Shown: positions 9,570 through 38,145, numbered from the stretch's first letter. The stretch is 60,000 nucleotides of DNA from Chiloscyllium plagiosum (GCF_004010195.1 NC_057751.1:9555611-9615610), one strand, 5' to 3'. Numbers and translations: made by a program. The notes: generated by a model not told the origin, from the letters alone.

Positions 9570-10055
9570 GGTTAGCACGCCTTGCATGACTTGGATTTTG
9601 TTTTCTTTTTGTTTGATGCCAAGTTGAGGTCATTGATGTTGAGTAGGTAGTTAAGTGGTATTGGTAACAAGGTGCCCATGGATAACAGGAAATGATGATC
9701 CATGTGGACACTTGGTCAGATTTCTAAATTAACATTAAGTGCAACATGCTGCTTTTAAGGTTACTCCAGCTGTTCAAGTTCAGTCTTGGAGGCAGTTGGA
9801 GAATTGATACTCAGATTAGTGGGATCCAGGTGGTAGTTTGGACACTGCTATACACAGGTTATAAATTGTGTGAAATGTTCAACTGCAGTCACAAACGTTT
9901 TGTTGTGTCGTGACTGCAGCAGAGATCTGAATCTGGCAGGGATGTTCAGAGGAGTTAGGTGTAAAATGAATTTGGGTGAGATAAACAAGAAAGGTAAGCA
10001 GACACTTCGATCGTTTGTCAGTCCCCCAACCAGAGTGGTCAAATGGTTATAAGTA

Positions 10056-11959: not shown

Positions 11960-12539
11960 TCTTGGTCCACTCCTAAACTCCCACCACTACCTCCCACCCT
12001 GCAGCACCTTCCCAGGGGATCAAACAAGGTGAAAGATCTTGTCTCCTTTTCTCAAACCCTATCCATCATTGAACTGTTTTGACACCTTCCAGGTGAAGCA
12101 CCCATTTACCTGCACTTGACTCAATCTAATCTACTGTATTCACTGCACCCAATGTGGTGTTCTGCTGGGGAGATAAAATGTAAACTGAGGGACTTTTGCT
12201 GAACATTGCAGAAATAACCCCCACCTTTGAGCTGTCTCATTTCATGCGACCATGTTCCTTGCCCTAAATGTGTGCAGAGCCTACAGCAGTGCTCCAACAA
12301 AGCTTAGCGCACGTTGAAAGAACAGCATCTCATTTTCTGCTGTGGAACGCTGCAGCCTCCAGGACTCCATACCAAGTTCAATAATTTGGAGCTGGAGCAC
12401 CATCTTGTCTCCTTTTCCCAAATCCTATTCATCATTGAACTGTTTTCACCACAGCCAACCCATTTTACCTGCTCATGCTCATCAGTAGCTTTTATTACTT
12501 CCCAGTTCATCATTCCTTAGCCTGCCCAACTGCTATTTT

Positions 12540-18267: not shown

Positions 18268-18585
18268 TAGATTAGATTACATTACATTACAGTGTGGAAA
18301 CAGGCCCTTCGGCCCAACAAGTCCACACCGACCCGCCGAAGCGAAACCCACCCATACCCCTATATTTACCCCTTACCTAACACTACGGGCAATTTAGTAT
18401 GGCCAATTCACCTGACCCTGCACATCTTTGGACTGTGGGAGGAAACCGGAGCACCCGGAAGAAACCCACGCAGACACGGGGAGAACATGCAAACTCCACA
18501 CAGTCAGTCGCCTGAGGCGGGAAATGAACCCGGCTCTCTGGCACTGTGAGGCAGCAGTGCTAACCACTGTGCCACCGTGGTGCCC
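18268..18585 (-). mobile_element. Full-length HE1-type V-SINE
   Basis: Complete tRNA head with A/B boxes, V-domain and (AATCT)n tail; very similar to 25468-25768. Confidence 0.93.
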
Positions 18586-19846
18586 AGAATAGCTATGAGA
18601 CAGTGTGACATTGTGCTGATGGAGAGAGGGGTCAAGACTGTCCATGAGGCAGCATATGACACTCATTTGCAAACATTATAGTTTTGCTGTCACCAGGGAC
18701 AGCAATGAGGTTTATGACTCAAGAGACTGAGTTCATGTCAGGGACTGAAGATAGCACTTCAGTGTTTCCAACATTTGATTGCAAAAAAAATTCTGTAAAT
18801 TCAGGACTAGGTGTCAGGCAAGAAGTGCAACAATAACAGAGTAAAGGGGTTAAAAAATATGGTGAGATGGAGCTTGGTGTTGTTAACATACGTATGGAAC
18901 CTGAGTGTTTTTAATAATGTTACAGTTCTTGGGAAGGAGTCAGGGGCAAGGATGACCCCTTGAGGGATTTGCACTAACTGCGAATCATCCTTCAGTCATG
19001 CCACGAGGGATAGATAATTGGTAAAATTATATTTGTGGCTAACTCTGACTTCAAATAATTTATAAACTTGCATTGGAGCATTGGTTTCCTGTTAGATGAA
19101 TGGTCCATTATACTGCTCAGGTTGAACTTGAATGCATTCTTTGTATTCCTTAAAAAATGTAGCTTTAGACTCGTTGCATTGCAACATCAGAAAAAGGAAT
19201 TTTGTACGAGAGAAAACAGATTGCTCATGTTACAGGAATTTCAGTTGCATTCTGATATGGACTTTACAACAGATAACCAGATCAAAATTATAGACTTATA
19301 AATGATACTCCTTGGTTTCATTCAAATTGCAAGACAAGTTGTGGGCTGACCTCGATCTACTCAAATTCATCTTTCAATAGATACATATGCAGACAGTGAC
19401 TGCTTTACTTGATAGGATCACCAAACACATTGTGAGACCCTCGGATAAAGTAACCACCTGTTCAGTTATTTACTTTGTACTGGGATCGGAGTTGTATTTA
19501 CTGTCAAAATATCTGACATATTAACATTGTTGAATTTACTATAATATGCCATCTCCAAACTTATGTACAGCCCCAGCCCAAGTTGACGGGAGAATTATAT
19601 ATACAATTGGCTGTAATAGTTAAAATGTATAACAGCTTGAAAAAAATGTCATCAATGTTGTTCAGAGCGCTACTGATTTTCAAAACACAAAACTGACTGC
19701 AATTCAACCTATTTTGTCAACAGGGTGGAGACAAGAGTTTACCCACCATTGCTACTTTGTTGAAAAATTATAAAACATTGTCCATTTAGGACTTAAAATT
19801 CAACACTCTAAAGTATGGATGAAGTAATCTCAAGAATTTACTTGTA

Positions 19847-21526: not shown

Positions 21527-21839
21527 ATGTGAACAAATGAAATTGTATCAAAGTAGAGGGAAATGTAACAGTATTAGTTATAGCACGATGAGAAACTCGA
21601 AGACACTGAGGTTGGAGACCAGCAGTATAGGTAGAATGAGGGAAAAGGTTCTGCTGTGTGAATGAGCATCTTGTTGCGAAATTGAAAAGCAGAATCAAAC
21701 TGATGATAATCTTGGATTTCTGCATTGGCCACGAGCTAATTGGCACAGGGTCAACAAGAGTAAAACATGTGACTCAAAGATTGGTGTGAAAAAAATGGGT
21801 TCAAATTCATGGGACATTGGCACCAGTGTTAGGGAAGGA

Positions 21840-22095
21840 CCATAAGACTGTAAGTTATAGGAGCAGAATTAGCCCAATGTGTCTGCTCCGCCATTCAACT
21901 GTGGCTGATATGTTTCCCAAACCAATTCTACTGCTTTTCCCCGATAACCTGCACTAATAAAGAATCTATCTCCGTCTTAAGTGCATTCAATGATTTGATC
22001 TCCATGGCCTTCTGCAGCAATGAGTTTCACAGATCCTCTGGCTAAAGAAATTCCTCCTCACCTCAGTTCTTCAGGGTCATCTGTTCACTGAGGTA
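21840..22095 (-). mobile_element. CR1 3' end fragment
   Basis: cataagac..taggagcagaattag...aagaaattcctcctcacctcagtt; same type as the start of 54100-56460. Confidence 0.75.
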
Positions 22096-23477
22096 ATACT
22101 CTCCTGATTATTCCATGAGCCACAAGCACAGGGTCAACAACATTTACAAGGTAAATGCATGGCTCAAATATTGGTGTGGGAGAAACAAATTCAAATTATT
22201 GGAATGTGGGCACCAGTACAGTGGAAAGAGGGAGCTGTTCCAATGAGATGGGATCTACCTGAATCATGCTGGTACCAGATTCCTGGTGAATTGTGTAACC
22301 AGAGCTGTGGAGAGGGCTTTAAACCATACCATGAGGGATGGGTCCACTTACATGGAAAATTACAAAATCCAAGGTAAAGGAGAAACTAGGATTGCAGATT
22401 GGTGATGGGGCTGATTGTTACCAGAAAATAAAACAAAGTGATAGAATGTGTCAATGTCATATTGTACCAAGGACCATGAAAGTGTCAGGAAATTTAGAAA
22501 TGGAACAAACTGAATATGCAAAGCGTTCATAATAAGGGACAGAAACTGACAGTACAAATCAAGAGAAATTATTATGCTTCATAGCCATTCTGGAAACATG
22601 GTTACAAGGAGATCAAAAGTGGGAACTTAACATTTAGAGATATTTGATCTTTTGGAGAGACAGGAGGGATAGAGAACGTGGTGGAATAGCACCCTGACAA
22701 GAGATGAAACAAGGACAGCTGTGAGATGCGGTCTTGGCTCAGATGATTTTGAATGCATTTAGGCGGAGATAAAACATAGACAAGATACTGAAATGAGCAG
22801 CATACACACCCCCAAACAGTAGCTGCTCTGGGAGAAAGGCTGTAAATCAACAAACAAGAGTTTGTAAAAGGAATAGAGCAGTGCTTACGGTTGACTTTAA
22901 TCTTCATATTGGTTGGGTTCATCAAATGAAAAAGGGTGGCTACGACAGCACATTCATAGGGTTCAATCGGATCAGTTTCCATATCAATACATCATGGACC
23001 AGGAAACTGGCGGTCTTAAATCTAATAATGGAAAAAGAAACATGCTTAAAAAATTATGTGAGATAAAAAGACTGCCTGGGAAGTAGTCATCAGAACATGA
23101 CAGAATATATTATTCAGTTTCAGAGTGATAAATTTGGACTGGAAACAACTGTGTTTAACTTAACTAAAGGAATTACAATGAAATAAGGATAAAATTAGCT
23201 GAGGTGAACCATGCAGATAGACAGCAAACAAGCACTGACACATATTGAAGGAGGTAATTCATGATTCTCAGCAAAAATACATTCCAGTCAGGAGAAATGA
23301 TTCTCAGGGAAGGAAAAACCAACCATGACCAACTAAGGAAGTTCAGGAGAGTATTCAGTTTAAAGAAAAAGCATATAAGCAGGCCAAAGTCATTGACAGC
23401 CCCAAAGACTGGGATAAATTCAGAATCCACCAAAAGAGACAAAAAAGACAGACAGACAAAATAAACTATGATAGGCA

Positions 23478-23951
23478 AAATTTTTGTTGCAAACATTTTG
23501 TCCACTGTGACATCCTCAGTGCTTGGGAGCCTCCTGTGAAGCGCTTCTGTGGTGTTTCCTCCGGCATTTATAGTGGCCTGTCTCTGCCACTTCCAGTTGT
23601 CAGTTTCAGCTGTCCACTGTAGTGGCCGGTATATTGGGTCCAGGTCGATGTGTTTGTTGATGGAGTTTGTGGATGAGTGCCATGCTTCTAGGAATTCCCT
23701 GGCTGTTCTTTGTTTCGCTTGCCCTATAGTGCCACTACTGCGGACAGCTGAAACTGACAACCGGGAGCGGCAGGGACAGGCCACTATAAATGTCGGAGGA
23801 AACACCACAGAAGCGCTTCACAGGAGGCTCCCAAGCACTGAGGATGTCACCTAGACAGGGGACGAAACGTTTGCAACAAAAATTTCCAGCTCGGCGAACA
23901 GAACCACAACAACGAGCACCCGAGCTACAAATCTTCACCCAAACTTTGAAC
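23478..23951. mobile_element. Penelope-like family C fold-back element (inverted termini around a GIY-YIG C-terminal remnant)
   Basis: Arms ~23478-23626 and ~23731-23884 are inverted; the spacer encodes QAKQRTAREFLEAWHSSTNSINKHIDLDPIY on the minus strand. Confidence 0.85.
23835..23874 (+). ncRNA. Minimal type-I hammerhead ribozyme motif (family C)
   Basis: GCA-CUGAGGA-U-[GUCACCU AGAC AGGGGAC]-GAAA-CGUU-UGC: both core boxes, stem II, 3-bp stem I, ACGU palindrome. Confidence 0.75.
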
Positions 23952-24123
23952 ACCTATTGGCAAAAGTAAGTTTAGATCAGAGTGGTGCTGGAAAAGCACT
24001 GCAGATCAGGCAGCATCTGAGGAGCAGGTGACAAACTAGTGAGGAATATAAAAACTGATAATAAGAGCTTCTTTAAATATGTAAGGAGGAAGAGAGGAGT
24101 CAAAATGAATATAGGTCCCTTTA

Positions 24124-25044: not shown

Positions 25045-26112
25045 GGGTAAGGTTTCTGAGCCTGGGGTTCGTCCACTCTGTCCGCTTTTTATTTTGTTTC
25101 TTTCTTTTTCTTCTCTTGTTTCTTTTTTTAAAATTTTTTTAAACTTACCCCTTGGTAAGAGCTTGGTCGTGGCAACGGCATCGGCAAGTGGGCCCAGCAG
25201 CATGGACTCAAGTAAGCCCAGCAACATGAATGCATGGCATTGGCGTCTGAGGCAAGTTTGGATTTCCTGCAGCTTCTGCATTGTCAAGTCAGCCTTAGTG
25301 CCGACTCATGTCTGCTGTGACAGAGGCGAGTTTGGGTTGCTGGCAACATTTGGATTCGGCGCAGATCTATGGAGGCAGTGGCAGAGGCAGGTTTGGGCCC
25401 AGTACAAGACCTGGCAGCGGTGGGGTGAAACCAAAGCGGACTCATGGCGACAGTGGAATCAAGTTTTGGGCGGCACGGTGGCACAGTGGTTAGCACTGCT
25501 GCCTCGCAGCGCCAGAGACCCGGGTTCAATTCCCGACTCAGGCGACTAACTGTGTGGAGTTTGCACGTTCTCCCCGTGTCTGCGTGGGTTTCCTCCGGGG
25601 GCTCCGGTTTCCTCCCACAGTCCAAAGATGTGCAAGTCAGGCGAATTGGCCATGATAAATTGCCCGTAGTGTTAGGTAAAGGGGTAAATATAGGGGTATG
25701 GGTGGGTCACGCTTCGGCGGGTCGGTGTGGACTTGTTGGGCCGAAGGACTTGTAAGTAATCTAATCTAAAAAAAAAAGTTTGGGCTGTTCTAGTACCCAT
25801 GGCAGCTGCATTGGTGAGGTATATTAAGGACACAGAGTGGTGACTGCATCGGTGGAGGCAAGATGGTGATTTTCACACCAGCAGCAGTGCAGTGAAGGGA
25901 TCTTTTGCCCTACTACCAGACCCATACTCTGTGATGGAGCACTTAATAAGAAGGTGAACACTTGTTCTTTATTTCTTCATTTTTCTGCCTCTGTATTTTA
26001 TATTTTGGTGTATTTTTCTGTGTTGTAAGATGGCGCTGAAGAGTGGAAACACCGTATAATACTTGTCACTGCATTTTGTAATAAAATACGTGACAATAAA
26101 TAAATCAAATCA
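25045..26112 (+). mobile_element. Non-coding retroposon with (AAATC)n tail, interrupted by a SINE
   Basis: Ends taagatggcgctg...cgtgacaataaataaatcaaatcaaat; similar architecture on the minus strand at 28768-29400. Confidence 0.5.
25468..25768 (+). mobile_element. Full-length HE1-type V-SINE
   Basis: A box TGGCACAGTGG, B box GGTTCAATTCC, V-domain, aatctaatct tail; imperfect TSD aagttt(t)ggg. Confidence 0.93.
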
Positions 26113-26349
26113 AATGTATTTCAGAGATCCCATTAATACTGAAGAATATGGGAGAGGAATTAAGTAGCATCACCACCACTAGCAAACATGGAATTAGACA
26201 GAAGAACAGTATTAAAGACCTGGTGGATAGCATGGCGGCTCAGTGATTAGTACTGCTGCCTCATTGTGCCGGGGGGTGGGTTCGATTCCAGCCTCAGGCG
26301 ACTGTCTATGTGGAGTTTGCATGTTCTCCAAGTATCTGTGTGGGTTTCC

Positions 26350-27924
26350 ACCCCTTCTACATTCAGGACACCACCCATGCCCTCCACCTCCTCCATGATT
26401 TTCGCTTCCCCGGCCCCCAATGCCTTATCTTCACAATAGACATCCAGTCCCTATACACTTCCATCCGCCATCACGAAGGCCTCCAAGCCCTCTTCTTCTT
26501 CCTCTCCTGCCGACTCAACCAGTAACCTTCCACTGACACCCTCCTTCGGCTCACTGAACTGGTCCTCACTCTTAACTTCTTAACTGTTCCAATTCTCCCA
26601 CTTCCCCCAAACCAAAGGAGTAGCCATGGGCTCCCGCATGGGCCCCAGCTTTGCCTGCCTCTTTGTCGGATATGTGGAACAGTCCATCTTCTGCAACTAC
26701 ACTAGCACCATCCCCCACCTTTTCCTCCGCTACATCGATGATTGTATTGGCGCTACCTCGTGCTCCCACGAGGAGGTTGAACAGTTCATCCACTTTACTA
26801 ACACCTTCCACCCCAACCTCAAATTTACCTGGACCGTCTCAGGCTCCTCCCTCCCCTTCCTAGACCTCTCCATTTCTATCTCAGGCGACCGACTCAACAC
26901 AGACATTGACTACAAACCGACCGACTCCCACAGCTACCTAGATTACCTCCTCCCACCCTGCCCCTTGTAAAAACGCCATCCCATATTCCCAATTCCTTCG
27001 CCTCCGCCACATCTGCTCCCAGGAGAACCAATTCCACTACCGAACAGCCCAAATGGCCTCCTTCTTCAAAGACCGCAATTTCCCCTCAGACGTGGTCGAC
27101 AATGCTCTCCACCGCATCTCCTCCACTTCACGCACCTCCGGCCTTGAACCCCGCCCATCCAATTGCCACCAGAACAGAACCCCACTGGTCCTCACCTTCC
27201 ACCCCATCAACCTCCAGATACATTGTATCATCCTCCATCATTTCTGCCACCTCCAAACAGACCCCACCACCAGGAATATATTTCCCTCCCCACCCCTATC
27301 AGCATTCTGGAGAGACCACGCCCTCTGCAACTCCCTCGTCAGGTCCACACCCCCCACCAACCCAACCTGCAACCGCAAGAAATGCAAAACTTGCGCCCAC
27401 ACCTCCCTCCAAGGCCCCAATGGATCCTTCCATATCCGTCGCAAATTCACCTACATCTCCACACACATAATTTATTGTATCTGCTGCACCCGATGTGGTC
27501 TCCTCTACATTGGGGAGACAAGCCGCCTACTTGCAGAACGTTTCAGGGAACACCTCTGGGACACCCGCACCAACCCAACCGCCCTGTTGCTGAACACTTT
27601 AATTCCCCCTCCCACTCGGCCAAGGACATGCCAGATTCAGCACCACCCTCTTGACCTGCAATCTTCTTCCCGACATCTCTGCCCACACCCCCTCTCCGGC
27701 CTATCGTCCTCACCTCCTTCCACCTATCGTATTCCCAGCGCCCCTCTCCCAAATTCCACCCCCCCACCTTTTATATTAGCCTGCTTGGCACACCAGCCTC
27801 ATTCCTGAAGAAGGGCTTATGCCCGAAACGTCGATTCTCCTGCTCCTCGGATGCTGCCTGGCCCGCTGCACTTTTCCAGCACCACACTTTTCAACTCTGG
27901 TCTCCAGCATCTGCACTCCTCACT
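26350..27924 (+). mobile_element. Penelope-like element family A, 5'-truncated: RT plus GIY-YIG endonuclease pseudogene and terminus
   Basis: FTIDIQSLYTSI, GVAMGSRMGPSFACLF, FLRYIDD, LPFLD, IYCICCTRCGLLYIGET..LAERFREH; several frameshifts and stops. Confidence 0.93.
27803..27834 (+). ncRNA. Minimal type-I hammerhead ribozyme motif (family A)
   Basis: UC-CUGAAGA-A-[GGGC UUAU GCCC]-GAAA-CGUC-GA: intact core, GUC cleavage triplet, ACGU palindrome; stem I very short. Confidence 0.7.
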
Positions 27925-32060: not shown

Positions 32061-32700
32061 TAATGTCCGCACAACGCATCCCGTTCAACATCCCCCCCCA
32101 CCCCCACTCCCTTCCTGACTCCAGCTGGACAAGTTTCCCGCTGATGCGGGGACCAGCAGTGACGCTCGGTTTCTGCCCGTCGCGAAACGGCTCGGCGCAC
32201 GACCAAGAACAGCAAACCAATGTCACTGCCCGAAAAGCCCCACGGAAAGAGGGAAGGAAGGGGGGGCAAAATAAAAAGCTTGGTTCGTGTGTCTAAAATG
32301 GCGGGCGACAGCCACCGTGCCCCTTGGACTGGGCGGTGAGATTATCGCTGTTTACCGTGGCGAAAGAACGAGAAAATAAATACACAAATACAAATAAACA
32401 AGTGCTGGCCGGGCATACTGTCATCATCCATCGCCAGAGGGGAAAATAAACTCACGCAACGTGAAGGGTTGTCGGCAGGTTTCCCGTTCCCATGGAGACC
32501 GTTGGGCTTTGACCCGGAAGGGGAATCTGCCGCGGCCGGAGGTCAGGTTCCAGTGCCATCCGGTGGTGAAGGGGGAGTCGAGTGGCCATGGCGGATGTGA
32601 CTGCTCGTAGCCTGCAATATGAGTACAAAGCGGTGAGTGCCGCCCGTGTTGAGGATCGTTAGCGCTGGGATTTGGTCTCCTTGTCTGTGTCGACACAGTT
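32060..32700. promoter_or_regulatory. CpG-rich promoter and first-exon region of SNRNP200
   Basis: Local CpG enrichment in an otherwise CpG-poor window; YY1-type AAAATGGCGG (32295-32304), GC box GGGCGG (~32330), ETS-type CCGGAAG (32514-32520). Confidence 0.7.
32588..32632 (+). CDS. SNRNP200: U5 snRNP 200 kDa helicase (Brr2), coding exon 1 (MADVTARSLQYEYKA)
   Basis: Kozak gccATGG, conserved N-terminus, gtgagt donor. Confidence 0.96.
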
Positions 32701-33194: not shown

Positions 33195-33404
<210 letters not shown>

Positions 33405-33719
33405 TAAGGGCTACATGTCTTGTCAATCATCACAGTTTATTTGGAGTTGCGAACAGTATTATACTAATAAGCCATCTTTATAAACCGAAAAGACTCATCC
33501 TGAATGATAAAATGTCTTTAGTTCACTGAAGGAAAATAGACGAGGGGGGTCATTCAGTTCAATGCACTTGATAATTTTATCCCCTGAAATTTTTAAATGC
33601 TTCACAATGTGCAAAGTTGGATTAAACAACAAATTGAGATTTGAGGTGACATTAAAGTAATCTTTGCACATTATTGTGCTTGCTGTTATTTGGTGTAAGC
33701 AGCATGATGAACAAATTTC

Positions 33720-33967
33720 ATAGAGTCATGGAGATGTACAACATGGAAACAAACCCTTCAGTCTAATTCATCCATGCCAACCAGGTTTCTTAAATTAATC
33801 TAGTCCCATTTGTAAGCACTCAACCCTTCTTATTCATATATCCATCCAGATGCAAAAGTTATAATTATTCCAGCCTCCCACACTTCCTCTGCCAGTTCAC
33901 TCCATACATGGACCATCCTCTGCATGAAGAAGTTCGCTCTCAAGTCCTTTTAAATGTTTCCCCTCTC
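33720..33967 (-). mobile_element. CR1 3' end (host copy; resumes at ~37320-37390)
   Basis: catagagtcatggagatgtacaacatggaaaca tail complement; continuation aaacctatgccc after the nested LINE. Confidence 0.7.
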
Positions 33968-35774
33968 ATAGAACATTACAGCGCAGTACAGGCCCTTTGG
34001 CCCTCGATGTTGCGTCGACCTGTGAAATTAATCTGATGCCCGTCAACCTACACTGTTTGATTATTATCCATATGTATGTCCAATACTAATTTAAATTCCT
34101 TTAATGTTGGCGAGTCTACTATTGTTGCAGGCAGGCTGTTGCCACGCCCCTACTACTCTCTGTGTAAAGAAACTACCCCAATATCTGTCCTAAATCTATC
34201 ACCCCTCAAATTAAAGCTATGTCCTCTCATGTTCGCCTTCACCAGCCAAAAGAAGGCTCTCACTGTCCAATCTAACCAACCCTCTGATTATTTTATACGT
34301 CTCGATTAAGTCACCTCTCAACCTTCTTCTCTCCAACAATAACGGTCTCAGTTCCCACAGCCTTTCCTCCAAGCAATGTCCTAGTAAATCTTCTCTGAAC
34401 TCTTTCCAAAGCTTCCATATCCTTCCTATAATGGGCGACCAGAACTATATTCCAGTTACGGCCTTACTAGTGTCTTGTCCAGCTGAAGCATAACCTCGTG
34501 GCTCTGAAACGCAATCCCCCTACCAATAAATGCCAACACACCGTATGCCTTCTTAACAACCCTATCAACTCGGGTGGCAACTTTCAGGGATTTATGCACC
34601 AGGACACCAAGATCTTGCTGTTCTTCTACACTGCCAAGAATTTTACCATTAGCCCAGTATTCTGCATGCCTGTTACCTCTTCCGAAGTGAACTACCTCAC
34701 ACTTTTCCGCATTAAATTCCATTTGCCACTTCTCAGCCCAGCTCTGCATCTTATCTATGTTCCTCTGTCACCCACAATATCCCTCAGCAGAATCCACAAC
34801 TCTGCCTACCTTAGTGTCATCCGCAAATTCACTAACCCGTCCTTCTGTGCCCATTATAAAAATGACAAACAGCAGTGGCCCCAAAACAGATCCTTGCAGC
34901 ACACCACTGGTAACTGAGCTCCAGGATGACCGTTTCCCATCAACCATCACCCTCTGTCTTCTTTCAACTAGCCAATTTCTGGCCCAAACCGCTAGATGAC
35001 CTTCAATCCCGAAATTGTGCAATAGCCTACCTTACTGAAATCCATATACACTATATCAACCGCTTTACGTTCATCCACCTGTTTGGTCTTTTCAAGGAAC
35101 TCAAAGTTAGTTAGGCACCACCTACCCTTCACAAAACTGTGTTGACTATCTCTAATCAAATTATTCCTTTCCAGATGATTATAAATCCTATCTCTTATAA
35201 CGTTTTCCAACACCTTACCCACAACTGAAGTAAGGCTCACTGGCCTATAATTACCAGGTTTGTCTCGACTCCCCTTCTTAAACAAGGGAACAACATTTGC
35301 GATCCTCCAGTTTTCTGGCAGTACTCCTGTTGACAATGATGACATAAAGATCAAAGGCAAAGTGCAGTCTCCTTCCTGGCTTCCCAGAGAATCCGAGGAT
35401 AAATCCCATCCAACCCAGGGGACTTGTATGTTTTCAGATCATCCGAAATTGCTAAAACCACCTCCTTGTCAACCACAATCCCATCTAATCTCGTGGCCTG
35501 TATCTCCATATTCTCACTAACATTGTCGTTTTCCAATGTGAATACTGATGAAAAATATTCATTAACCGCTTCCCCTATGTCCTCAAATTCCACACACGAC
35601 TTTCCACCTCAATGTTTGATTGGCCCTAATCTTACTCTCATCATTCTTTTATTCCTGATATACCTATAGAAGGTTCTTAGAGTTTTCCTTGATCCTATCT
35701 GCCAAAACCTTCTCATGTCCCCTCCTGCTTCTCCTTAGCCCTCTCTTTAGATCTTTTCTGGCGAGCTTATAACT

Positions 35775-36100
35775 GCTGTGGTTCTGTTCGCCGAGCTGGA
35801 AATTTTTGTTGCAAACGTTTCGTCCCCTGTCTAGGTGACATCATCAGTGCTTGGGAGCCTCCTGTGAAGCGCTTCTGTGGTGTTTCCTCCGGCATTTATA
35901 GTGGCCTGTCCCTGCCGCTTCTGGTTGTCAGTTTCAGCTGTCCGCTGTAGTGGCCGGTATATTGGGTCCAGGTCGATGTGTTTGTTGATGGAGTTTGTGG
36001 ATGCGTGCCATGCTTCTCGGAATTCCCTGGCTGTTCTTTGTTTGGCTTGCCCTATAACACAGCAACGAGCACCCGAGCTACAAATCTTCTCTCAAACTTT
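35775..36100 (-). mobile_element. Penelope-like family C short insertion, 12-bp TSD, nested in CR1
   Basis: gagcttataact at 35763-35774 and 36101-36112; near-identical to 23478-23951; short inverted tail at ~36057-36100. Confidence 0.9.
35811..35850 (-). ncRNA. Minimal type-I hammerhead ribozyme motif (family C), consensus core
   Basis: Minus strand GCA-CUGAUGA-U-[GUCACCU AGAC AGGGGAC]-GAAA-CGUU-UGC. Confidence 0.78.
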
Positions 36101-37857
36101 GAGCTTATAACTCTCAATCCCCCTAACTGAGCCTTCATGCCTCATCCTCACATAAACTTTCTTCTTTCTCCTGACAAGAGCTTCAACATGTCTTTCCCCC
36201 AGTAATACCTCTTTCCCTGCGGTATATACCTAAGTCTGCCCATTGCTCTTGTAAACATAACCAAATTGTGGTCACTATCGCCAAAGTGATCACCTACTTT
36301 CAAATCTAACATCGTTCTGGGTTCATTCCCCAATATGGCATCTCCCCTTGTTGGCCTGTCCACATACTGTGTCAGAAAACCCTCCTGTACACATTGAACA
36401 AAAACTGACCCATCTTAACTGCTTGAACTATAGCATTCCCAGTCAATATTGGGGAAGTTAAAGTCACCCATAACAACTACCCTGTTACTCTCGTTCCTCT
36501 CCAGAATCATCTTTGCTATCCTTTCCTCAACATCACTGGAACAATTCAGTGGTCTAGAGATAACCCCCAACAGGGTGACCTCTCCTTTCCTGTTTCTAAC
36601 CTCAGCCCAAACGACCTCCATGGATGAGTCCTCAAATGTTATCTCAGCTGCTTTAGTACTACCCTTGATTAACATTGCCACCCCCACCCTTTACCATCTT
36701 CTCTGTTCTTACTGAAACATCTAAATCCCGGAATCTGCAATAACCATTCCTGTCCCTCCTCCAGCTATGTCTCTGAAATGGCCACAACATTGAAATCCCA
36801 GGTACCAACCCATGCCGCAAGTTCACCCACCTTATTCCAGATGCTCCTGGCATTGAAGTACACTTATTTCAAACGAACAACCTGATTGCCAGTGCCCTCT
36901 TGAGACCTTGTAAACCTATCTATGACCTCACTTCCCTCAACATCCTGTACACTGGAACTACAATTCAGGTTCCCATTTCCCTGCAGCATTAGTTTAAACC
37001 CAACCAGAAAGCATTAGCAAATATCCCCCCCGCCCAGGATATTGGTACCCCTAAGGTTCAGGTGAAGACCATACTGTTTGTAGAGGTCCCACCTTCCCCA
37101 GAAAGTGCTCCAATTATCCAAGAATCCAAAACCCTCCCTCCTGCACCATCCCTGCAGCCACACGTTCAGCTCTGCTCTCTTCCTGTTCCTCGCTTCACTA
37201 GCACGTGGCATGGGCAACAAATCAGAGATAACTCTGTTCAAGCTCTAAGCTTCCACCCTCGCTCCCTGAGTTTCTGTCTAAGATCCCCACGTTTCTTCCC
37301 ACCTATGCCCAATAGTTTTCTTTCTCACCATAAACCTATGCCCTAAAGTTGTGGACTCCTTACCTGGGGAAAAGACCTTGACTATTCTATGAACAATTGT
37401 TTGTTGACAGTTCATCCTATTCTCTGCGTTCCAATCATGACTTCTTGTTCAGAAAAAAAATTATCTACTCATTCAAAGGATAGATGGATTTTTTTGTGTC
37501 TCAGAGAATCGAGGAATGTGGCCAGTTGGCAAAAGAATGGATTGAAGTCCGAGAATTTTGGAGCACAATCCATAAAGCAACCAGTCCACTCCATCTCCTG
37601 TATTTCATTTTCAGGGGTGTGAAGTATTGAATCAGTGGCAAGGTCTTCTTCATTCGGTATAACAGCCCTATTCAAGTAGTTATGGGAAGTTTGCAGTTGA
37701 GCATGATAAATTTCACTCCTTTCAAACTTCTTATTCAGCCCAGAGGAAAATATTTGTAATCAGATTGGTTGGCAGTTTTCCACTAGCCTTTTGATTTTGT
37801 GCACAAATTTATGCTCAGGCAACATGAGATTTCTTATTTTAATTTCTTTGCTGTTAA

Positions 37858-38145
<288 letters not shown>

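Follow-up and report, generated by a model that had tools for sequence, protein, structure and literature searches.

The window analysed here is a stretch of 60,000 nucleotides (60 kb) of the Chiloscyllium plagiosum genome (NC_057751.1:9555611-9615610), and its subject is a 326-bp insert at 35775-36100 that carries a hammerhead motif and lies in an intron of SNRNP200. We consider it probable (about 0.8) that this 5'-truncated insert is dead and was retrocopied, in a single recent event, from an endonuclease-bearing (EN+) Penelope-like element (PLE) of the Penelope/Poseidon clade. The original prediction for this locus, a retrotransposed, hammerhead-bearing, recent insertion, is supported in these respects; its further proposal, that of a non-autonomous unit copied from a defined short RNA, is weighed below.

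Structure, origin and age of the insert

The insert is flanked by a 12-bp target-site duplication (TSD), with the left copy at 35763-35774 and the right copy at 36101-36112 (both on the plus strand). The 12-mer, which contains a TTATAA palindrome, occurs exactly twice in the window, at these flanks, and forms the sole isolated 12-mer pair at a spacing of 300-400 bp, the other 18 of 19 pairs being overlapping runs from three longer repeats. The first two bases of the right copy also match the end of the element's tail. Moreover, the first three bases of the duplication (35763-35765 and 36101-36103) fit the tail end and at two positions differ from other copies of the host long interspersed element (LINE), as judged from the loose-end consensus; hence the duplication proper may measure 9-10 bp, the remainder being microhomology.

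Between the duplications, the body of the insert (35775-36057, minus strand, 283 nt) represents the 5'-truncated 3' end of a Penelope/Poseidon-type element and is antisense to the host gene. It is followed by an AC-rich tail of 43-45 nt (36058-36102, plus strand) in the opposite orientation, which repeats 6-7 nt of the body's end. The inversion junction (Y, 36056-36058), where the tail meets the body at its truncated 5' end, falls within an AT-rich part of the open reading frame (ORF) with the codons T-T-I-I-G. Both the perfect 12-bp duplication and the antisense body with an inverted tail of approximately 45 nt had been predicted, and both were found as described.

The body is coding. On the minus strand, 35831-36057 comprises the C-terminal approximately 75 codons of an ORF for a reverse transcriptase (RT) with a GIY-YIG endonuclease, open up to a stop codon at 35833-35831 that lies inside helix II of the hammerhead. 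The translation is 86.7% identical (tblastn, E 1e-37) to the C-terminus (residues 389-463) of P0002, a bamboo-shark protein that has an RT domain and, after it (330-345), a motif of the GIY-YIG type with CxxC. An overlapping second frame on the same strand (35776-35895) corresponds to the N-terminus of the same ORF; it starts with an ATG either at 35895 or at 35841, the latter coinciding with A9-U-G10.1 of the hammerhead, and runs on through the tail. This frame matches the N-terminus of P0010, with 95% identity over 93% of a 41-residue query taken from the second copy in the window. P0010 (656 aa; RVT_1 with E 4e-11, above the cut-off) and P0002 share 88% identity over 243 aa, and in P0002 itself the RVT_1 match is just below the cut-off. 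Since the insert contains the start of an ORF together with the end of that same ORF, it is the pseudo-long terminal repeat (pLTR) of a PLE. A TATA-box-like word at 35895-35900 (minus strand), shared by all three of the family's arms in the window, is a candidate pLTR promoter.

The linker finger CX2-5CxxC is absent in P0002, P0003, P0007, P0009, P0012 and P0013. According to Craig et al. 2021 (PMC8557442), its absence marks Penelope/Poseidon, and it is present in Neptune and Nematis. Thus, the family is placed with Penelope/Poseidon, and by the features tested we assign the insert to an EN+ PLE of this clade, the clade being set by the finger criterion. The other features of a PLE are an ORF with RT and, at its C-terminus, GIY-YIG (the window copy retains the C-terminus only), a pLTR with the first codons and a hammerhead, and an optional tail with an inverted 5'-truncated arm; inverted arms occur in both window copies. 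The peptide of the second copy, whose arm starts at 23478, is 90% identical to P0002, and a search with it returned eight proteins among 17 candidates, all from sharks. Exact-pattern scans of metagenome, viral and prokaryote contigs gave no copies, none of the 76 pattern matches for P0002 in metagenomes was confirmed as a locus, and a PDB sequence search with P0002 gave two chance-level matches only. No paper on this shark family was found in the literature searches made; repeat databases, which were outside the search, may catalogue it.

P0005 and P0008, gene models from the bamboo shark for NT5DC1 and MAP3K7, terminate with the C-terminus of the family's endonuclease. In these predicted isoforms, copies in sense orientation would have been exonised and would serve as the alternative last exon.

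The two outer ends of the insert are the family's two fixed ends. This follows from a comparison of 35613-36262 with RNA from four of 24 runs listed, 20 of which contain part of the stretch: one raw single-cell poly(A) run, represented by 516 reads from approximately 2% of its data, and three runs represented by contigs (X1, X2 and X12). The inner end (X, 35775-35777, minus strand), a putative inner priming site, is at +65 to +67 from the ATG at 35841; at 35777 the flanks are diverse, with an agreement of only 0.50 among 84 reads. The tail ends at +103 to +105 from the same ATG, at a putative outer priming site, and the flanks at 36102 are diverse as well (70 reads, agreement 0.48; contigs, 0.37-0.39). 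Strand-switch joints (35777-36062, 53 reads; 35779-36063; 35781-36058) show that in other copies the tail is contiguous with the body. The tail length between the two fixed ends is 38-40 nt, and copies with and without the tail are both seen.

The poly(A) single-cell library of run X21 contains RNA of the family (35775-36100), and over the body approximately 4-9 times more read pairs have the first mate on the plus strand. In most stranded libraries, such a position of the first mate corresponds to RNA of the element's coding strand.

Among the closest described systems is the Poseidon element from Anolis carolinensis (PAc; Frangieh et al. 2024, PMC11167929), whose endonuclease cuts both strands and prefers AT-rich DNA. 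In vitro, its reverse transcription primes at two sites bounding the tail, the outer one 111-118 nt into the ORF, and the ORF starts at stem II, the cut site following 26 nt downstream. The shark family resembles PAc in the combination of RT with a C-terminal GIY-YIG, the pLTR overlapping the ORF start, the ATG at stem II (the hammerhead cut site is at +28 from the 35841 ATG), the AC-rich tail bounded by two ends, and the AT-rich target. It differs in the position of the outer end, +103 to +105, and in that the window copy is a 326-bp stub whose tail is inverted relative to the body. An inverted 5'-truncated copy with an optional tail of 30-40 bp is the standard PLE architecture (Arkhipova et al. 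2013, PMC3846280; PMC8557442). The insert shares with it the heavy 5' truncation, the adjacent inverted truncated copy, the optional tail and a TSD, which in that architecture is approximately 8-10 bp, whereas here the TSD is 12 bp and the sense part consists of the 45-nt tail alone.

In the scenario proposed as the simplest, the GIY-YIG endonuclease would cleave the two strands of an AT-rich LINE site approximately 12 bp apart. One DNA end would prime at the outer site (the tail end, approximately +105), only 45 nt being copied; the other would prime at the inner site (approximately +65), with 283 nt copied up to a stop in the AT-rich stretch of the ORF. Joining of the two cDNAs would then leave an antisense body and a sense tail between the duplications. 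If each cut strand primed at one site of the Anolis Poseidon type, the outer ends of the insert would be expected to fall on the two fixed ends.

A twin-primed 5' inversion of L1 consists of a TSD, an inverted 5' segment, a sense 3' segment and again the TSD, with a few duplicated bases at the inversion point. The insert has the same geometry of duplication and inversion, also with a few duplicated bases at the inversion point; in contrast to L1, it lacks a poly(A) tail, its inversion point is a fixed site of the family situated approximately 45 nt before the end, and the enzyme belongs to another class.

The predicted youth of the insert and its retention of CpGs were borne out: it contains 14 CpGs, with an observed-to-expected ratio of 0.66 against 0.26-0.41 in the flanks. 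Four of its 326 positions differ from nearly all reads of the family, among the variants listed (162 more exist); two of these four create CpGs and one destroys one. In run X1, a 175-nt contig matches 36104-36262 with one difference and lacks the preceding tail, and six contigs contain a precise empty-site joint, which may point to an allele empty of the insert or to a sister species that lacks it. As other copies of the LINE can yield the same joint, and the run may stem from another species than the window, this is a lead only.

The shared 5' point and the rival explanations

Self-comparison of the window reveals a single further locus of the family, 23478-23958, giving three arms in all, none of them in tandem. 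Its antisense arm (23478-23729, minus strand) has a damaged helix II in the hammerhead and aligns to the body of the insert with 239 matches, 12 substitutions and 6 gap columns. Its sense arm (23731-23958, plus strand), arranged head-to-head with the antisense one, carries an intact minimal hammerhead (23838) and the tail. The body of the insert ends at 36057 and the antisense arm of the second copy at the equivalent of 36056; hence, the breakpoint noticed in the original prediction is indeed common to both within 1-2 nt. The two arms of the second copy differ from each other by 10 substitutions and 8 gap columns, and the sense arm differs from the insert by 6 substitutions. Since the antisense arm is further from the sense arm than the latter is from the insert, the two arms may be of different age. 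The second copy (23445-24070) appears to form a second nested stack: it would lie in a short piece of a different repeat family, which in turn lies in a decayed LINE. It has a degenerate duplication of 9-10 bp with one mismatch, and its sense arm extends approximately 8 nt beyond the usual tail end.

The RNA comparison bears directly on the nature of the shared point. At 36042 the depth is 44 RNA reads, of which approximately 35 pass the breakpoint into the ORF. Behind 36055 and 36057, 13 and 22 reads, respectively, have loose ends; among the ends listed, these follow one continuation with an agreement of 0.97 and 0.94. Translated by hand, this continuation corresponds to the ten residues of P0002 that lead up to the breakpoint. 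Among the contigs that continue at the breakpoint (X1, 19 and 56; X2, 42; X12, 29 and 55), the agreement is 0.75-0.87; at 36058, where one common continuation is expected, it is 0.82-0.95. No pile-up of read starts or ends was observed anywhere in the compared interval. As the library is 3'-biased, the fall of depth from 3' to 5' was not treated as a histogram of truncations and served only as a lower bound on the mean length. The insert is the coding 3' end of an autonomous-type PLE, most reads run into the ORF, and the proposal of a defined short RNA or a non-autonomous unit is not supported. What is fixed in the family is its pair of 3' ends and not this 5' end. The two window copies join the breakpoint to different partners, hence they are not copies of one pre-formed unit. 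The breakpoint is probably a matter of chance or of a weak sequence-driven stop, and not the end of a unit RNA.

Several points weigh against this interpretation. Were the two truncations independent, one pair would agree within 1-2 nt with a chance of 0.16-2.1%, the value depending on a mean length taken as 120-1000 nt, and the pair was picked after the fact; given so low a probability, the suspicion behind the original prediction was reasonable. The raw RNA reads are 3'-biased, come from a single sample and are not a census of copies, and the loose-end figures leave aside 1164 further rows. At most approximately 9 of the 44 reads (Wilson interval 11-35%) lack a demonstrated continuation past the breakpoint, with approximately 5 expected as natural read ends. 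The clade was assigned by the finger criterion, the relatives found bearing no family names; the Pfam GIY-YIG matches in P0006 and P0007 (E 0.03) are below the cut-off, and P0001-P0004 and P0009 have no match to this profile. Finally, two-site priming on one RNA is inferred from the geometry of the insert; for head-to-head junctions, self-priming on an antisense template is favoured in PMC3846280, and the tail is attributed to endonuclease-mediated resolution in PMC8557442.

One alternative, which we regard as unlikely, retains the same element and takes the breakpoint for a real minor 5' boundary. The inner-primed arms of the subfamily that includes both window copies would stop at a fixed AT-rich point approximately 283 nt upstream, in the endonuclease region, so that the pLTR would have a second, so far undescribed boundary. 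This could be set by the start of the source RNA (from a partial tandem with an upstream pLTR starting here, or from a truncated copy with a flanking promoter), by an endonuclease cut of the ORF or by an RT stop. The coincidence probability of 0.2-2% is in its favour, and by eye both copies have the same alleles at 35800, 35802, 35806, 35814, 35880, 35905, 36014 and 36038; as they may come from one subfamily or source, a minority hotspot is possible. The stretch also has the ATT motif preferred for cutting by Anolis Poseidon (PMC11167929), the same TTATAA word being present in the TSD of the insert, and up to 9 of the 44 reads are without a seen continuation. However, the reads that carry the window copy's allele at 36056-36057 and whose match ends at 36057 are those that agree at 0.94 on the ORF continuation, the contigs agree at the point about as well as at 36058, read ends do not pile up, and the sole TATA-like word is situated 157 nt downstream of the point. 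If this alternative were true, a fixed stop would explain how the pLTR length is set in a Poseidon family.

Much less probable still is a separate, non-autonomous retrozyme-like unit that arose from a short, defined RNA, linear or circular, which the hammerhead had processed. In its favour are the hammerhead motif of the insert, its small size, its youth and the shared breakpoint; moreover, non-LTR retrozymes have been proposed to derive from PLE pLTRs and are reported from one chondrichthyan, with a mean consensus of 363 bp (bioRxiv 10.64898/2026.07.22.740005). The insert resembles these retrozymes in the type I hammerhead, the origin from a PLE pLTR and the size. The same source requires two consecutive hammerhead units and describes tandem, non-coding elements, whereas the insert is a single coding unit, flanked by TSDs and internally inverted, from a family that extends into a full ORF; in the window no tandem arrangement and no ORF-independent boundary were found, most reads continuing into the ORF past the 5' point. 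In addition, the ends of the insert lie 37-39 nt and 243 nt from the predicted cut site at 35814, the two copies have different junction partners, and the monomeric motif cannot form helix III. That the inversion is secondary, a plain truncated copy having been rearranged after insertion or mis-assembled, we regard as barely credible: although no listed contig spans the whole locus and no RNA run contains half of the sampled words, the perfect TSD brackets the whole unit and both its outer ends are fixed ends of the family, which argues against random rearrangement.

The hammerhead motif

The motif carried by the truncated PLE copy is a minimal type I hammerhead at 35811-35850 on the minus strand. 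It consists of a helix I of 3 bp (35850-35848 with 35813-35811), the core at 35847-35841, an unpaired U at 35840, helix II at 35839-35822 (6 bp with one interruption) and GAAA at 35821-35818. A palindromic 8-mer (35820-35813, minus strand) stands in place of helix III, and the cut is predicted after 35814, at a GUU triplet. GUU triplets are associated with lower activity.

The original prediction had called the core canonical, which proved incorrect: there is an extra U after A9, helix I has 3 bp where a canonical monomeric type I hammerhead has approximately 6 bp, helix III, which should be closable, has a loop of zero nucleotides, the triplet is GUU, and Rfam gave no matches at the gathering score. 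The folding of five segments was no more stable than that of shuffled sequences in all five cases. A descriptor scan found two intact motifs in the window (35847, minus strand; 23838, plus strand) and none in 60 Markov-random windows. Among the RNA reads, N7 is G in 163 of 211, and the window copy has U, so that its CUGAUGA is the minority form in that run; N17 is C (GUC) in 116 of 217 reads, and the window copy has U (GUU). The U7 form is commoner in a related organism (organism B), as measured by summed contig depth, not copy number.

The described minimal hammerhead ribozyme (min-HHR; PMC4209133) has an unpaired base between positions 9 and 10.1, a G10.1-C11.1 pair and palindromic positions 15.2-16.2; as a single motif it is inactive in vitro, and it is thought to cleave itself as a dimer or with protein help. 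The window motif is similar in the conserved core, the unpaired base between 9 and 10.1, the G10.1-C11.1 pair, the palindromic 15.2-16.2, the long helix II, the short helix I and the lack of helix III, and likewise the min-HHR occurs mostly as single motifs in truncated PLEs. It differs in its helix I of 3 bp, compared with 4-5 bp in the Schistosoma families described there, and in the GUU triplet; no sharks occur in the consulted text of that paper. Judging by these features, the motif is the published minimal PLE hammerhead, a passenger of the pLTR. As it is a single motif and not a dimer, self-cleavage would not be expected. No pile-up of read ends was observed at 35814, in a library that cannot reliably show cleavage ends.

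Host intron, neighbouring repeats and implications

The exon at 33240-33403 matches residues 16-69 of human Brr2/SNRNP200 (E 2e-27). With the exon containing the SNRNP200 ATG at 32588 and the next exon at 37884, the intron at 33404-37883 (plus strand) is number 2 counting coding exons. The insert interrupts a decayed host LINE (approximately 33967-37320, minus strand) with an APE endonuclease and RT (Exo_endo_phos_2 at 36418-36690; RVT_1 at 34995-35438), which in turn splits the 3' end of an outer LINE into a left half (33731-33966, minus strand) and a right half (37311-37386, minus strand). An intact copy at 49705-49998 matches segments 33731-33941 and 37311-37386 in two parts that follow one another, and neither score was reached by any of 300 shuffles. 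Thus, of the predicted triple nesting in SNRNP200 intron 2, the LINE within a LINE and the intron stand, whereas the name CR1 for the host LINE is presumed by us from its motifs. The hammerhead is antisense to SNRNP200, hence the pre-mRNA carries only the reverse complement of the motif; with a single copy in which self-cleavage is not expected, no effect of the insert on SNRNP200 is expected.

The window contains other repeats. A second, different PLE at 26240-27900 (plus strand) is frameshifted and has RVT_1 (E 0.003), a CX4CxxC linker finger within 26942-27805 and GIY-YIG (E 1e-4, above the cut-off); by its sequence, it is classed as Neptune-type. Short pieces similar to the 3' end of this element are situated at 10042, 19970, 20094 and 49093. 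A 12-mer scan revealed direct repeats 366 and 383 bp apart at 12036-12446 and 21743-22140. Two copies at 18268-18589 and 25464-25769, which we take to be similar to tRNA-headed short interspersed elements, are 92% identical and have many diverged relatives in the window.

The insert in SNRNP200 intron 2 is a neat genomic trace of what Penelope elements are known to do, and it shows neither a new ribozyme nor a new mobile unit. Being young and abundant, the shark family provides good material for counting insertion events of this kind, and the shared 5' point, if it is a hotspot, would bear on the question of what sets the length of the pLTR.

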